Shown piece by piece: positions 1,354 to 51,035 of a DNA stretch of 64,000 nt. Origin of the DNA: Myxococcota bacterium (GTDB lineage Bacteria; Myxococcota_A; UBA9160; SZUA-336); contig CBDFGR010000001.1 of assembly GCA_965247115.1 (NCBI GenBank), positions 1 through 64,000 on the forward strand, in the 5' to 3' direction. Both the position numbers and the translations under genes were made by a program. The notes under the pieces are model-generated. The model worked only from the letters and a program-made list of their open reading frames with translations. It did not search any database and was not told where the DNA came from. Every line of letters begins with the position of its first letter. Position 1 is the first letter of the stretch.

Positions 1354-1403
1354 GCGGACTCCGAATCCGCCGGTCGCCGGTTCGATCCCGGCCGCGCTCA
1401 CCA
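1354..1403 (+). other. 3' half of tRNA-Arg(CCG); att core candidate
   Basis: GCGGA-CT-CCG-AA-TCCGC anticodon arm, GCCGG-TTCGATC-CCGGC T arm, CGCGCTC-A-CCA; no D arm or 5' acceptor strand; overlaps integrase stop codon. Confidence 0.85.
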
Positions 1404-2672
1404 TGGAACGCCCGCGACGTTGCTAACAGTTTCTGCAATGTCGCCAGGAGCGTGTTGGTCTGAAAACCCCGAGTGTCCGCTTTGTGGACGTTTATTGGGC
1501 GCGCCAAGCCGAGCCAGCACGTCCGTCGGCAGCTCGCCATAGGCTAGTGGCGGTGTCGGCTGATACCTCTTGCGACGGATGTACTTGGTGTAGTGACGCT
1601 CCGTCACGCCCACGGACGAATGGCCCAGCTGGTCGGCGATGTGCACGAGCTCCTGACCATTCGAGAGCAGCTGGCTCGCGAAGGTGTCGCGCAGATCTTT
1701 CGGTCGCCACGCTCGAGTGGTCCCGGCACGCGCCAGGATTCTGCGCCACTGCCTCTGCCTCCAGTTGCCCTGGTCGCGCGGCACAATGACACGATCCGGG
1801 CTGGGCCGGAACTCTTGTGTGTAGAGCTCCATCAGGACCCGTCGTAGCCGCCTGGAGAGATCCACATAGCGCGTCCTCCCACTCTTGGGTGGATCACCGG
1901 GGTACATGCCTCTGGGGTTCGACTCCGAGATCTCGAGGCTGCGGCCTAGGTCGTTCTCGTCCTCTCCCCAGTTGACTGCCCGCCAGCGGATCTGCATGGC
2001 TTCTCCGATGCGCAGTCCAGCGTCGAGCATGAGCAGCACCAGCACGTGATCTTCTAGACTCTCCTCTCGGGCCGAAGCAAGGATGCGTTCGATTTCCGCG
2101 GGGTCCTCAATAGGCCGGACATGCTTCCCCGCCTCACTTAGAGCTCTGCCCTTCTTGGTCTTGTTCTCCTCCCGGATAATGGCCTGAAAGTCTACGACGG
2201 GATTGTGCGCGATGAGCCGGTGACGACGGGCTCGGCGCATAATTGCCGAGACGCTATCGAGATATCGCCGTCCCGTACTTGTCGCTCGCTTCCCCTCGAT
2301 GCTCTCTTCCCACCACCGGAGTAGCGACTCATCCGTGAGTTGAGATATCGGGATGTCGCCAAAAGCCCGGTCCAGCATTCCGCCAAGACGGAGATGATTT
2401 CTGTGGTCATCCTGCGTTGTACCTGCCAGGTTCGACATCCCGTGCTTGAGGTAGGCGGCGGCTGCGTCTCGGAAGAGGAGCTCGTCACCCTCTGGTGTGT
2501 AGCCGCGCTCTTCATACTCCAGGATGAGCCTCGACGCAGCGGCCCTTGCTTTCCCGGCGTCTTTGGTCCGGAGGGACTGACGGGGGATGAGTATCTCGTT
2601 GCCTTCTACGTACTCCACGTAGTAGTGCGCGCCACGCTTGAAGATTCGAGGGCCGTCTGCCTTACGAGACAC
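1398..2672 (-). CDS. int: Tyrosine recombinase/integrase
   Basis: DAGLRIGEA (R), PKSG (K), KDLR (HxxR variant), LGHSS...ERHY (H,Y). Confidence 0.95.
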   Translation of the reverse strand: MSRKADGPRIFKRGAHYYVEYVEGNEILIPRQSLRTKDAGKARAAASRLILEYEERGYTPEGDELLFRDAAAAYLKHGMSNLAGTTQDDHRNHLRLGGMLDRAFGDIPISQLTDESLLRWWEESIEGKRATSTGRRYLDSVSAIMRRARRHRLIAHNPVVDFQAIIREENKTKKGRALSEAGKHVRPIEDPAEIERILASAREESLEDHVLVLLMLDAGLRIGEAMQIRWRAVNWGEDENDLGRSLEISESNPRGMYPGDPPKSGRTRYVDLSRRLRRVLMELYTQEFRPSPDRVIVPRDQGNWRQRQWRRILARAGTTRAWRPKDLRDTFASQLLSNGQELVHIADQLGHSSVGVTERHYTKYIRRKRYQPTPPLAYGELPTDVLARLGAPNKRPQSGHSGFSDQHAPGDIAETVSNVAGVPW

Positions 2673-15392: not shown

Positions 15393-15651
15393 CGTCATCC
15401 ACTCGATGCGGTCGCGCTGGTATCGCGCCACCTTCCAGACCGAGATGGGGCGGCGGGTGCTGGGAGATCTGGCGCGCTTCTGCCACGCCTACACGACGAC
15501 GCATGTGCAGGGCGATCCGGTGGGCAGCGCGCAGCTCGAGGGACGGCGCCAGGTCTTCTTGCGGATCCGCGGCCATCTGCGGGCCGACCAGGAAACGATT
15601 GAGGACATCGCCGAGCGCACGCAAGCGCTCGAGCGGGATAGGAGTGCATGA
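15382..15651 (+). CDS. Post-portal protein (Bbp19-like)
   Basis: YRATFQTEMGRRVLGDLARFC...EGRRQVFLRI. Confidence 0.8.
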   Translation: MLSNVIHSMRSRWYRATFQTEMGRRVLGDLARFCHAYTTTHVQGDPVGSAQLEGRRQVFLRIRGHLRADQETIEDIAERTQALERDRSA

Positions 15652-16496
15652 TGGCAGGAGAGGGTGGTGAAGGTACGGGCGATCAGGGCGAGGGACCTGG
15701 TGGCGAGGGCGGCGGGGTGGAGACCTGGACCGAAGGGCTGGGCGAAGAGGTCCGGGGCTGGGTAGAGTCAAAGGGCTGGCAGACCGCTGATGATGCCTTT
15801 GCAAGCCATCGCAGTCTCGAGCAGATGCAGCGCGTTCCTCGCGAGCGCCTGCTGGAGATCCCAGAGACGGCGGACGATGCGACCGCGTGGAGCGGCGTCT
15901 ACCAGCGTCTCGGGGCTCCTGCGGAGGCGTCCGGATACGAGTTCCCGGAGGTCCAGGTCGGCGAGGGCCAGGTAGACCTCAGGGGGAAGTTCCGGGAGTG
16001 GGCGCACAAGCGGCACCTCACGAAGGACCAGGCGTCGGGGCTCTTCGAGGACTTCCAGGCGGAGATGGGCGGGATTGAGGAAGCGGCGCTCGAGGAGCGC
16101 AATCAGCAGAGCGAGCTCGAGATGGCGGCGCTCAAGAAGAGCTGGGGGCAGGAGTACGACGCGAACGTCCTGGCCGGCAAGCGCGCTGCTCGAGGTCTGG
16201 GCCTGGACGAGGCGCAGCTCGGCTCGCTCGAGGACGCGCTCGGGACCCGCGAGATGCTCGAGCTCATGGCGAAGATCGGACGCGGGATCGGCGAGTACAA
16301 GCTCCCGGACGAGGAGACGACACTCGGCCAGCCTTTCGGACTCACGCCGGACGCGGCCAGGGTCAAGATCGCGGAGCTCCAGGCGGATCCGGAGTATCAG
16401 AAGGCCTTCCGGCCCGACGCGACTCCCGTGATGCAAGAGGCCGCGAGGGAGAAGATGCAACGGCTCCAGAAGATCGCCTACCCGGAGGGCGCCTAG
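15648..16496 (+). CDS. Capsid scaffolding protein
   Basis: Acidic, helical; LKKSWGQEYDAN; lies between portal and MCP. Confidence 0.85.
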   Translation: MMAGEGGEGTGDQGEGPGGEGGGVETWTEGLGEEVRGWVESKGWQTADDAFASHRSLEQMQRVPRERLLEIPETADDATAWSGVYQRLGAPAEASGYEFPEVQVGEGQVDLRGKFREWAHKRHLTKDQASGLFEDFQAEMGGIEEAALEERNQQSELEMAALKKSWGQEYDANVLAGKRAARGLGLDEAQLGSLEDALGTREMLELMAKIGRGIGEYKLPDEETTLGQPFGLTPDAARVKIAELQADPEYQKAFRPDATPVMQEAAREKMQRLQKIAYPEGA

Positions 16497-16538
16497 CTCT
16501 TGACACGGACGGTGGGATAGGGCGACAGTTCCGAGGTC

Positions 16539-16657
16539 GGCCCGCTTGGCGAGCGGCACAAGCCAAAAGCCAATCCAGGCCCCGCGGTGGCACGCGGGCA
16601 CAAGCCTCGTCGCCGTAGATCAGAGTTCGCAGGCCCGGGAGACCCCGGCATAAGCCT
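16539..16657 (+). promoter_or_regulatory. Three tandem bulged hairpins in the capsid-gene leader
   Basis: (A)GGC-stem-loop-CAYAA-GCC(T) x3 with covarying inner stems. Confidence 0.75.
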
Positions 16658-16707
16658 CGAAGTCGTGGTGCAGCGCGTTCTGCGCTGTGTTTGGAACGAG
16701 GTTTGTC

Positions 16708-17577
16708 ATGTCGAACGAGATCACCACTGCGTTCGTCCAGCAGTACAAGGCGAACGTGGCCCTGCTCCTCCAGCAGCGAGGTAGCAAGCTCGCGGGTGCG
16801 CTCATGACCGGCACCTCGGTCGGCAAGGCCGGCAAGGTGCTGGAGCAGATCGGCCCGGTCGTGGCGCAGAAGCGGACCAGTCGGCACGCGGACACGCCGC
16901 TGATCGAGACCCCTCACGCGGCTCGCTGGGCGTTCCCCAGCGACTACGAGTGGGCGGACCTGATCGACGACCAGGACAAGCTCCGCACGCTGATCGACCC
17001 GCAGAGTCCCTACGCCGTGAACGGCGCCTATGCGCTGGGCCGCGCGAAGGATGATGAGATCATCGCCGCCTTCTTCGGCACGGCGAAGACCGGCGAGGAC
17101 GGGGATGTGGACGAGGCCTTCGATACCGCCACCTACCAGATTGCGGTGGGCGGTGCGGGTCTCACGGTGGGGAAGCTCCGGACGGCGAAGCGGCTCCTCA
17201 TGGCGGCCGAGGTGGACGTGGACAACGACCCCCTCTACGTGGCCATCGGGGCGACGCAGCACGACAACCTGCTCGGCGAGACGCAGGCAGTCAGCCTGGA
17301 CTTCACCGACAAGCCGGTGCTGGTCGATGGCCGGATTCGCGCGTTCATGGGCTTCAACTTCATTGACTGCAATCGCCTCGGGCTCGACGGCTCGGGCGAC
17401 CGCCGTTGCCCGGCCTGGGCGAAGTCCGGCATGCACCTCGAGATGTGGAACGACATCAACACGCAAATCTCGGATCGACCAGACAAGAGCCACGCCACGC
17501 AGGTGTACGTGAAGGGCACCTACGGGGCGACGCGGCTCGAGCAGGGGAAGATCATCGAGATCATCTGCGACGAGTAA
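16708..17577 (+). CDS. Major capsid protein
   Basis: MSNEITTAFVQQY...LLLQQRGSKL...GATRLEQGKI. Confidence 0.93.
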   Translation: MSNEITTAFVQQYKANVALLLQQRGSKLAGALMTGTSVGKAGKVLEQIGPVVAQKRTSRHADTPLIETPHAARWAFPSDYEWADLIDDQDKLRTLIDPQSPYAVNGAYALGRAKDDEIIAAFFGTAKTGEDGDVDEAFDTATYQIAVGGAGLTVGKLRTAKRLLMAAEVDVDNDPLYVAIGATQHDNLLGETQAVSLDFTDKPVLVDGRIRAFMGFNFIDCNRLGLDGSGDRRCPAWAKSGMHLEMWNDINTQISDRPDKSHATQVYVKGTYGATRLEQGKIIEIICDE

Positions 17578-17660
17578 AAAAGAAGCGTTTCTGATCGGTC
17601 GGGCTGGAGCGGCGCGGAGTCGTTCCGCTCCCCGCCTGACCATCGCCAGGGAGGGCAGTC

Positions 17661-49189: not shown

Positions 49190-49265
49190 GCTGGCGTAGC
49201 TCAATTGGCAGAGCAGCTGACTTGTAATCAGCAGGTTGGAGGTTCGAGTCCCCTCGCCAGCTCCA
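49190..49265 (+). tRNA. tRNA-Thr(TGT)
   Basis: Full cloverleaf, CT-TGT-AA loop, CCA. Confidence 0.97.
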
Positions 49266-49404
49266 CACCCGTGAGGTGAGGAGCGAGGGGACGGGACATA
49301 GCCTTACATATCCCCTTACATAGTATGGGACGATTCTCCCGGGCCTCGAGTTAGTGGGGGTGCTCGCAGGGGCTGGGTTTTTTTTACGCTTGGGTCGGGT
49401 CTCC

Positions 49405-49490
49405 GGAGAGGTACCGAAGTGGTCAAACGGGACAGGCTGTAAACCTGTTGGCTTCGGCCTTCGGAGGTTCGAATCCTCCCCTCTCCACCA
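49405..49490 (+). tRNA. tRNA-Tyr(GTA)
   Basis: Cloverleaf with long variable arm, CT-GTA-AA. Confidence 0.97.
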
Positions 49491-49512
49491 TTCGATACGA
49501 AGGAGCGACGAC

Positions 49513-49589
49513 GCGGGAATAGCTCAGTTGGCTAGAGCACAAGCCTTCCAAGCTTGGGGTCGCGGGTTCGAGTCCCGTTTCCCGCTCCA
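49513..49589 (+). tRNA. tRNA-Gly(TCC)
   Basis: Cloverleaf, CT-TCC-AA. Confidence 0.97.
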
Positions 49590-49599
49590 GGTTTGTTGG

Positions 49600-49675
<76 letters not shown>

Positions 49676-49742
49676 GCGCGTTGAGCAAAGAGGTACGACA
49701 AGCCCCCTAGGGCAATGGAATCTCCCTCTGGAGAAGGAATAG

Positions 49743-50933
<1,191 letters not shown>

Positions 50934-50958
50934 CCTCGTACGGCTCAGTACAAATCAC

Positions 50959-51035
50959 AGGTCAGTAGCTCAATTTGGTAGAGCAGCGGTCTCCAAAACC
51001 GCAGGTTGGGGGTTCAAGTCCCTCCTGGCCTGCCA
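50959..51035 (+). tRNA. tRNA-Trp(CCA)
   Basis: Cloverleaf, CT-CCA-AA. Confidence 0.97.

Follow-up and report, generated by a model that had tools for sequence, protein, structure and literature searches.

A conserved, bulged RNA module in the capsid-gene leader of podophages: a predicted translational switch with the scaffolding protein as candidate partner

Coat protein that is made without scaffolding protein misassembles. To our knowledge, the matching of coat to scaffold is known in only a few phages, the main case being P22, whose scaffold represses its own gene and senses the unassembled pool. Translational autoregulation by the P22 scaffolding protein was reportedly described by Wyckoff and Casjens in 1985. 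The available portions of a preprint assign the N-terminus of this protein a part in translational control (bioRxiv 10.1101/2022.12.13.520362). A second relevant system is the Com protein of phage Mu, which, according to the accessible sections of the source, binds a short hairpin beside an inhibitory structure and exposes the translation start of the mom gene (PMC6483171). Candidate structured RNAs have also been collected 5' of phage GP20, GP32 and capsid genes, among them GP20-a and GP20-b (RF02991 and RF03003); in the parts of that source available, Supplementary Table 3 has candidates 5' of PHA00201, HK97-type, N4-type and 'capsid_maj_Podo' genes and no pfam19821 entry (PMC10690425).

The capsid leader described here is a real, widespread and uncatalogued RNA family with a predicted Shine-Dalgarno (SD) switch architecture and a specific candidate partner. 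No description of it was found in the literature, to the extent that the texts were available.

The capsid leader and its bulged RNA module

Positions 1398-29274 of the window (the whole stretch of DNA analysed, 64,000 nucleotides) are an integrated temperate podophage at the beginning of a 312-kb contig; the bacterial genome to which it belongs measures 5.17 Mb. The prophage carries integrase (1398-2438, minus strand), RecT-like, exonuclease VIII, repressor-like, resolvase, terminase, portal and tail genes, and also encodes a 2066-aa ejection-type protein. Five tRNAs lie elsewhere in the window, at 49190-51032. The features of the leader and its flanking genes are:

15648-16496, plus strand: scaffolding-protein gene, 282 aa, candidate RNA ligand; open reading frame with a match to phrog_3742, function unknown
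15726-15833, plus strand: core of the scaffold N-terminal domain (W27-R62); confidently modelled helices, found in leader-bearing phages and absent from leaderless ones
16500-16529, plus strand: candidate sigma-70 promoter, TTGACA-18 nt-GACAGT, proposed from the sequence and a regex scan
16539-16564, plus strand: unit 1, with GGC/GCC outer stem, 5-bp inner stem, CACAA bulge and UGGCG loop
16547-16572, plus strand: predicted pseudoknot 1, loop UGGC (16547-16550) with GCCA (16569-16572), from the sequence
16577-16607, plus strand: unit 2, with AGGC/GCCU outer stem, 6-bp inner stem, CACAA bulge and GUGGCA loop
16587-16616, plus strand: predicted pseudoknot 2, loop GUGGC (16587-16591) with GCCGU (16612-16616), from the sequence
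16631-16657, plus strand: unit 3 (the proximal unit), with AGGC/GCCU outer stem, 5-bp inner stem and CAUAA bulge
16670-16688, plus strand: 7-bp spacer hairpin between unit 3 and the SD; many relatives have similar spacer hairpins
16698-16702, plus strand: SD sequence GAGGU, 5 nt 5' of the ATG, complementary to GAUCACCUCCUUU, the tail of the host 16S as present in the genome
16708-17577, plus strand: major capsid protein gene, 289 aa (phrog_3437, E 1.6e-84; PF19821, E 2.8e-79)

Homologues of the scaffold that occupy the same gene position carry the annotation 'capsid assembly protein' or 'scaffolding protein', and the structure predicted for the window protein is helical (pLDDT 87). The candidate promoter would start an RNA at about 16536, which would place unit 1 at the 5' end of the transcript. 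It is a weak candidate, with a -10 box that matches at 3/6 positions, and was missed by a consensus scanner. Pairs of -35 and -10 sequences also occur just 5' of the leader in phages ZP6 and J2 and in loci L026, L106 and L438, and none was found before the leader in L024, L027, L047, L048 and L062. A GC-rich bulged hairpin without the AYAA bulge lies directly past the capsid stop codon, at 17611-17636.

An earlier note on this DNA had described three tandem bulged hairpins, and all three are present at the coordinates that it gave. Each folds in isolation as it had been drawn (-9.3, -16.2 and -12.5 kcal/mol for units 1, 2 and 3), and the inner stems pair as noted, including the full pairing of CCGGG with CCCGG in unit 3. 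The units had also been said to fill the intergenic gap, which proved to be an overstatement, as they cover 119 of the 211 nt between the scaffold stop (16496) and the capsid ATG (16708). A strict pattern, drawn up after the units had been seen, matches the window three times (the units themselves), compared with 0.01 matches per shuffle in 100 dinucleotide-keeping shuffles, and has no match on the minus strand of the window. A slightly looser pattern finds the three units and three isolated matches in the entire 5.17-Mb genome. In the context of the whole leader, the predicted lowest-energy fold is not the three hairpins, and the 201-nt region is not more stable than its shuffles (z -0.79).

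The loops of units 1 and 2 hold UGGC, which is complementary to a GCCR sequence a few bases 3' of each hairpin, a feature overlooked earlier. These loops are predicted to be able to form pseudoknots. Among 10 aligned three-unit leaders, the first pseudoknot is paired in 40 of 40 cells and the second in 95% of cells, with no two-sided change in either.

Relatives were collected through the capsid protein alone, and loci with 260 nt of upstream sequence were counted, the window included. The module lies 5' of the PF19821/phrog_3437 capsid gene in 74 of the 80 loci examined, and its matches number 131 in 20,800 leader bases versus 63 in 271,195 other bases. When IMG/VR was scanned blind to gene identity, 49 of 126 exact pattern matches fell directly 5' of this capsid family, as did 34 of the 46 exact matches with a longer inner stem. 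The family form consists of three pairs, one C opposite A-Y-A-A and, next, a C-G pair followed by a stem that varies. The loop counts in 118 de-replicated leaders are 68 for C/ACAA, 65 for C/AUAA, 15 for C/AUAC and 6 for C/GUAA, with C/GCAA (5), U/GUAG (5) and U/GCAA (4) being rarer; each of these loops occurs at most 0.1 times in shuffles of the same leaders. These loops can be read as a pair (C-A, C-G or U-G) with what would be a 3-nt bulge after it.

Covariation was measured in a MAFFT alignment of proximal units from 53 of the 80 anchored segments (26 derived from pattern scans and 1 mis-anchored segment were left out; before anchoring, 11 divergent or leaderless loci had been set aside, and 5 had no anchor). 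In this alignment 90.2% of cells are paired, compared with 73.5% after shuffling and at most 46.7% when the pairing is slid, and six of the seven pairs show two-sided changes. The module occurs in both polarities, such that the hairpin loop may close either helix. In the 118-leader set, which includes pattern-derived loci, at least two units are found in 91 leaders and both polarities in 56, and 96 of the 118 carry no unit after shuffling. The occurrence of both polarities argues that the bulge geometry, and not the hairpin, is under selection, as expected of a binding site.

The Pelagibacter phage HTVC010P is among the most abundant viruses of the ocean. It has one clear unit, in reverse polarity, and the other cultured phages with the module or a variant are Ralstonia DU_RP_II, Pelagibacter Greip, Yersinia YeP6, Alteromonas ZP6, and Vibrio K300, J2 and CKB-S2. 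The module sequence varies by phage lineage (AYAA, AUAC, GUAG). The conserved 5-nt CAYAA bulge of the earlier description is a local variant, the family form being a single C opposite AYAA. Outside the window the CAYAA bulge was found in one other virus only, that of L024 (the same virus as L240, L547 and L666). In a first scan of a collection 2 of 122 matches to the window-type CAYAA pattern were 5' of this capsid gene, and in two further scans 2 of 239 loci were, both of them from the L024 virus; such matches in collections are mostly chance.

A covariance model of the family (R1) matched the held-out locus L095, all three units of L096, and L444 (E 0.3). The model is weak; in the window it matched only unit 3 (E 0.67), and among 34 sources it matched no AUAC or GUAG variant. 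A search of the window against Rfam 15, a check that the earlier note had proposed, gave only the five tRNAs and no family that reached its gathering score with the element. The leader searched at E<=10 gave one chance match of 9 bits, and Rfam scans of 40 relative loci gave no match, the GP20-a, GP20-b and riboswitch families included. The three hairpins are almost certainly repeats of a conserved, covarying bulged RNA module in the capsid mRNA leader. Position, repeats and covariation across relatives, all of them direct observations, lend good support to the proposal that this is a cis-regulatory RNA whose recognition sites are repeated; the companion proposal of processing sites found no support.

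Several leaders have additional elements. In L022, L025, L026, L045, L050, L055 and L095 a larger architecture is found in the 150 nt 5' of the capsid ATG: a 5' GCGCAC/GGUGU hairpin follows straight after a clear promoter, and a GAA/AGUA pair, which we take to resemble a loop E or bulged-G motif, encloses a reverse-polarity unit. A GGAAAGAC or UGAAAG hairpin loop is conserved between the two units of L001, L007, L016, L081, L119, L124 and L164, and is possibly a T-loop or tetraloop-type tertiary contact. In the YeP6-like prophages (L086, L354-L433), the 175 nt 5' of the capsid ATG contain two C/AUAC or C/AYAA units and a 5' GGUCGG hairpin; a GCGCCA loop is conserved there, and an upstream strand, AUCACUCCA, shows complementarity to the SD region. 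In L095 (a 5 kb region), L025 and L049, up to 2.1 kb of extra genes lie between scaffold and leader, and despite these inserted genes the promoter-like sequence and the leader stay joined to the capsid gene.

A predicted competing fold over the Shine-Dalgarno site

Units 2 and 3 have 3' arms that double as anti-SD strands, a feature which the earlier note overlooked:

16600-16610, plus strand: anti-SD strand in the 3' arm of unit 2, 11 bp with 16696-16706; inverted repeat I5, formed in the lowest-energy fold
16650-16659, plus strand: second anti-SD strand, in the 3' arm of unit 3, 10 bp with 16697-16706; from the predicted fold

The computed energies for the window leader, which leave out pseudoknots and non-canonical pairs, are -62.0 kcal/mol for the fold that closes the SD (OFF) via unit 2, -59.0 for OFF via unit 3, and -51.8 for the fold with the SD free (ON). 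The OFF ground state is thus computed to be about 10 kcal/mol more stable than ON. The probability that the window SD is unpaired is 0.0 in the free leader and still 0.0 with unit 3 forced to fold, and rises to 0.27 if unit 2 is forced instead and to 0.51 if all three are; this last opening has an ensemble cost of 13 kcal/mol and reaches only 0.51. An inhibitory structure that buries the SD is likewise predicted in 36 relatives, where the mean accessibility is 0.17. Forcing the proximal unit lifts this mean to 0.35, with a gain of more than 0.2 in 17 of the 36, a decrease in 1, and a median cost of 7.7 kcal/mol. (These 36 are the loci, of 57 de-replicated by capsid, with a proximal unit detected by the strict search.) Little burial of the SD is predicted in CKB-S2 (unpaired 0.85) and J2 (0.57).

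The exclusion between module and SD helix is specific to each phage's own ribosome-binding site (RBS). Over 35 leaders, the outer pair of the last unit has a mean probability of 0.03 next to the leader's own RBS; the value is 0.55 once the RBS is deleted, 0.25 after shuffling of the RBS and 0.28 with foreign ones; the corresponding window values are 0.02, 0.99, 0.83 and 0.85. The own RBS suppresses the last unit more than foreign RBSs do in 33 of the 35 relatives. The complementarity between arm and RBS is itself directly observed: the duplex of each arm with its own RBS averages -12.3 kcal/mol, compared with -10.3 +/- 0.35 for permuted combinations, and none of 10,000 permutations was as strong, in a set de-replicated by capsid identity so that kinship is reduced and not fully removed. 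The anti-SD strand is the 3' arm in most relatives and the 5' arm in L081, L110, L120, L124 and L133; its presence in either arm implies that there was more than one route to SD exclusion. The YeP6 clade has its anti-SD strand 5' of the first unit, not within an arm.

When a structure covaries without being the ground state, and its formation rules out the SD helix, this is the hallmark of an ON state that a ligand stabilises. On the modelled folds, the leader probably acts as a translational switch.

Scaffold N-terminal domain and leader loss

The presence of the leader goes together with an N-terminal domain of the scaffold. Among 233 loci with a complete scaffold and a capsid start, all 84 with a scaffold-capsid gap of less than 40 nt are without the domain, and 146 of the 149 with a gap of at least 90 nt keep it. 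Of the three low scorers with the longer gap, L006 and L445 have what look by eye like divergent copies, and L099 is without the domain and has a 219-nt gap. In the leaderless phages the scaffold and capsid genes abut (10-25 nt), with neither RNA leader nor domain. The leaderless state appears at three places on the capsid tree, and leader-bearing YeP6 is nested between two of them. YeP6 keeps the leader and scaffold residues S53, Y54, K59 and G62, residues that none of the 7 leaderless representatives has. Capsid columns show no such association with the leader: where they distinguish the groups, YeP6 departs from the consensus of the leader-bearing phages.

Co-loss of leader and domain amounts to three state changes on the tree, with two independent pairs on well-supported branches and three on all branches; with two to three independent events, the sign test gives p 0.5. 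The scaffold tree is also compatible with a single loss and a single regain of leader and domain. The capsid tree does not reject a grouping of the window with the three-unit clade (p-AU 0.38). The idea that the leader follows the scaffold gene and not the capsid gene was found to be unsupported, given this p-AU value for the three-unit grouping and an ambiguous scaffold tree. The suggestion of the earlier note that the hairpins set the stoichiometry of capsid and scaffold receives indirect support from the joint loss of leader and domain.

Two matches between bulge and protein sequence serve as hints. Both viruses with CAYAA units (the window phage and that of L024) have Arg at scaffold position 62, where the other loci have Gly (129) or Ser (1). 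These are two viruses of one scaffold clade and may represent one event, and the match was not extendable, as further CAYAA scans gave only the L024 virus. The variant U/GUAG units (U/GUUG in L006) of L087, L090, L436, L105 and L006 occur with loss of Ser-Tyr (replaced by QF, ML or AF), and a G-ending bulge accompanies loss of this near-invariant scaffold Ser-Tyr in ZP6, K300, J2 and L105. L107 is a counter-example, with a G-ending bulge and Ser-Tyr kept.

The domain core is not basic but slightly acidic, with a median net charge of -2 over 77 sequences; residues 25-95 of the window scaffold contain 7 K/R versus 14 D/E. The scaffold has no match in the PDB (best Foldseek E 1.7; best VIA Z 5.3, a common helical hairpin), and no homology to the P22 scaffold was found in these PDB searches. 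The N-terminal domain also has no PDB match (best Z 3.2, weak ribbon-helix-helix-like rows with rmsd 5-6). Fold searches of BFVD returned phage proteins only, mostly uncharacterised, and of the ESM Atlas unnamed viral clusters; a missing fold match is no result, neither evidence nor a sign of a new fold. The protein homologue search returned six sequences, and among the sequencing runs listed none was an RNA data set carrying the sequence.

Two other phage genes were considered as sources of the ligand. The small phrog_4437-like gene 5' of the scaffold was rejected in this role, as the leaderless phages keep it. This gene has an N-terminal extension in leaderless L088, L089, L434 and L447, hydrophobic in L088, L089 and L447, and leader-bearing phages are without the extension. 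ORFs of about 60 aa form a family (IRLECLKLA..., with a basic tail) that includes HTVC010P gp08; they lie across the scaffold stop and in many cases enter the RNA leader. Examples are L007:1218-1403 and L082:1727-1903, and none has a Pfam or PHROG match. The family was rejected as a general ligand, as the window and its genome are without a homologue (best E 1.1 and 0.13, respectively).

Proposed mechanism, alternatives and related systems

In the proposed mechanism, the arm of unit 2 or unit 3 would fold over the SD of the unbound leader (OFF). Free scaffolding protein would bind the bulges, likely via its N-terminal domain, and hold the modules folded, which would free the SD and allow translation of coat protein (ON). 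In the window, units 2 and 3 would both have to be held for the SD to open, making the response cooperative. As scaffold is taken into proheads the switch would close, so that coat protein would be made only while unassembled scaffold is present. The setting for such a switch would be a capsid gene uncoupled from the scaffold gene by a spacer, often with its own promoter; phages with abutting genes could use ordinary translational coupling, and would have lost both RNA and domain. We infer that the scaffold is the ligand and that coat-scaffold coupling is the purpose. Taken as a whole, this model of a translational ON switch opened by free scaffold, which couples coat synthesis to scaffold supply, stands for us in even balance between acceptance and doubt. 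Doubt slightly outweighs belief for a broader version, in which the switch would be a widespread assembly checkpoint of HTVC010P-like podophages: the scaffold would be a sequence-specific RNA-binding activator that reads repeated YAA bulges through an N-terminal domain of no recognised fold, bulge and protein helix would co-evolve, and lineages with fused genes would discard both.

The same ON switch might have a different holder, such as the capsid protein, another phage protein (for example that from the small basic-tailed ORF) or a host protein. All of the RNA evidence is blind to the ligand, and the small ORF, basic tail included, adjoins the leader in 9 of 40 representatives. This reading has a modest chance of being correct, lowered by the lack of a homologue of that ORF in the window and its genome, by the failure of any capsid column to track the leader (with capsid as activator, moreover, there would be positive feedback), and by the variation of the module among lineages, which is easier to reconcile with a partner encoded by the phage than with a conserved protein of the host. 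One might also dispense with a ligand. In a kinetic gate the units would fold first while the RNA is being transcribed and leave the SD briefly open until the leader relaxes into the OFF fold, as is suggested by their strong local folding ahead of RBS synthesis (probability 0.99 in the window when the RBS is left out); alternatively, ribosomes from an upstream ORF would open the SD, and the small ORF does enter the leader in several clades. However, a kinetic trap has no need of an invariant, repeated bulge in two polarities and leaves the co-loss with the scaffold domain unexplained, and the window scaffold ORF ends 43 nt 5' of unit 1, too. Gating without a ligand is thus given a somewhat smaller chance. 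If the units were instead scaffold-binding sites with a role in assembly, either bringing scaffold to nascent coat protein at the coat mRNA itself or acting as an RNA helper of prohead formation, the SD pairing would just dampen basal translation. The co-loss, the multiple copies and the slight SD burial in CKB-S2 and J2 would suit such a role, but the phage-specific complementarity of arm and RBS and the anti-SD in either arm show selection on the translation start and make it improbable.

Tandem bulged hairpins just past a promoter recall the put sites of HK022, and unit 1 starts about 10 nt past the candidate -10 box; the leader might on this basis be a put-like antiterminator, or a set of hairpins for nuclease processing or protection at the 5' end of a late transcript. 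Such a transcriptional or stability element is quite improbable, however, since no terminator-like site (a GC hairpin with a U run) lies within 16400-17600, the exclusion of the SD is specific, and the module is also seen in the opposite polarity and at sites remote from any promoter; for processing in particular, substrates of RNase III are longer than stems of 8-10 bp. A riboswitch for a small molecule or ion would have a precedent in the guanidine-II architecture, with its tandem short hairpins and SD-sequestering alternative. Here, however, the conserved bases sit in the bulge and drift by lineage, and the strict tie to one structural gene, the co-loss with a protein domain and the lack of an Rfam riboswitch match all leave this reading very improbable. 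Least probable of all is a phage small RNA that opens the leader by pairing with loops or arms: the UGGC loops are conserved, but they have a local partner. No perfect complement of the leader of 14 nt or longer was found elsewhere on the plus strand of the window, and the complements of 10-13 nt among those listed cover no bulge.

If scaffold does open the leader, the element is a different solution to the matching of coat and scaffold, found in marine, freshwater and enterobacterial podophages alike. An unannotated domain of the 'hypothetical' family phrog_3742 would thereby gain a function, and the small RNA module with its protein would make a pair that could serve as an orthogonal activator of translation. 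Even with another protein as ligand, a covarying RNA family absent from Rfam would have been added.

The scaffold-opened switch differs from the P22 system in both target and sign, the target being the downstream capsid gene and the predicted sign activation. Unlike what P22-type autoregulation would call for, a window scan covering both strands and both polarities found no module near the scaffold start at 15648. At the level of RNA structure, kink-turns and C-loops are short asymmetric bulges between two helices, in either polarity, and are typical protein-binding sites. The module likewise has a short asymmetric bulge between helices, in either polarity, and a sharp bend, as in kink-turns, would explain how a pseudoknot could cross a 9-bp stem with a 4-nt linker. 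Kink-turns have tandem G-A and A-G pairs after a 3-nt bulge; identity with them was rejected, since the module has no tandem G-A/A-G, its flanking pairs are Watson-Crick, and the bulge strand is R-Y-A-(A/C/G) opposite one pyrimidine.

Like GP20-a and GP20-b, the module is an RNA motif found by comparative genomics directly 5' of a phage head gene and presumed to be cis-regulatory. It differs from those families in having no Rfam match and, within the available parts of that source, from the listed candidates in its gene label, and may overlap with an unnamed DNAVirus candidate (PMC10690425). In Mu, as is proposed here from sequence and predicted folding, a phage protein opens a buried translation start. 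By analogy the leader would belong to a known kind, the protein-activated translational switch, with the scaffold as the proposed activator, working like Com on the mom leader and differing as a system. Com, in the accessible sections of the source, is a dedicated zinc-finger protein; it recognises a motif in a loop, and the gene under its control serves DNA modification (PMC6483171). In the capsid leader the proposed site is a bulge repeated two to four times, its own arm is the anti-SD strand, the regulated gene is that of the capsid, and the proposed activator is a structural chaperone.
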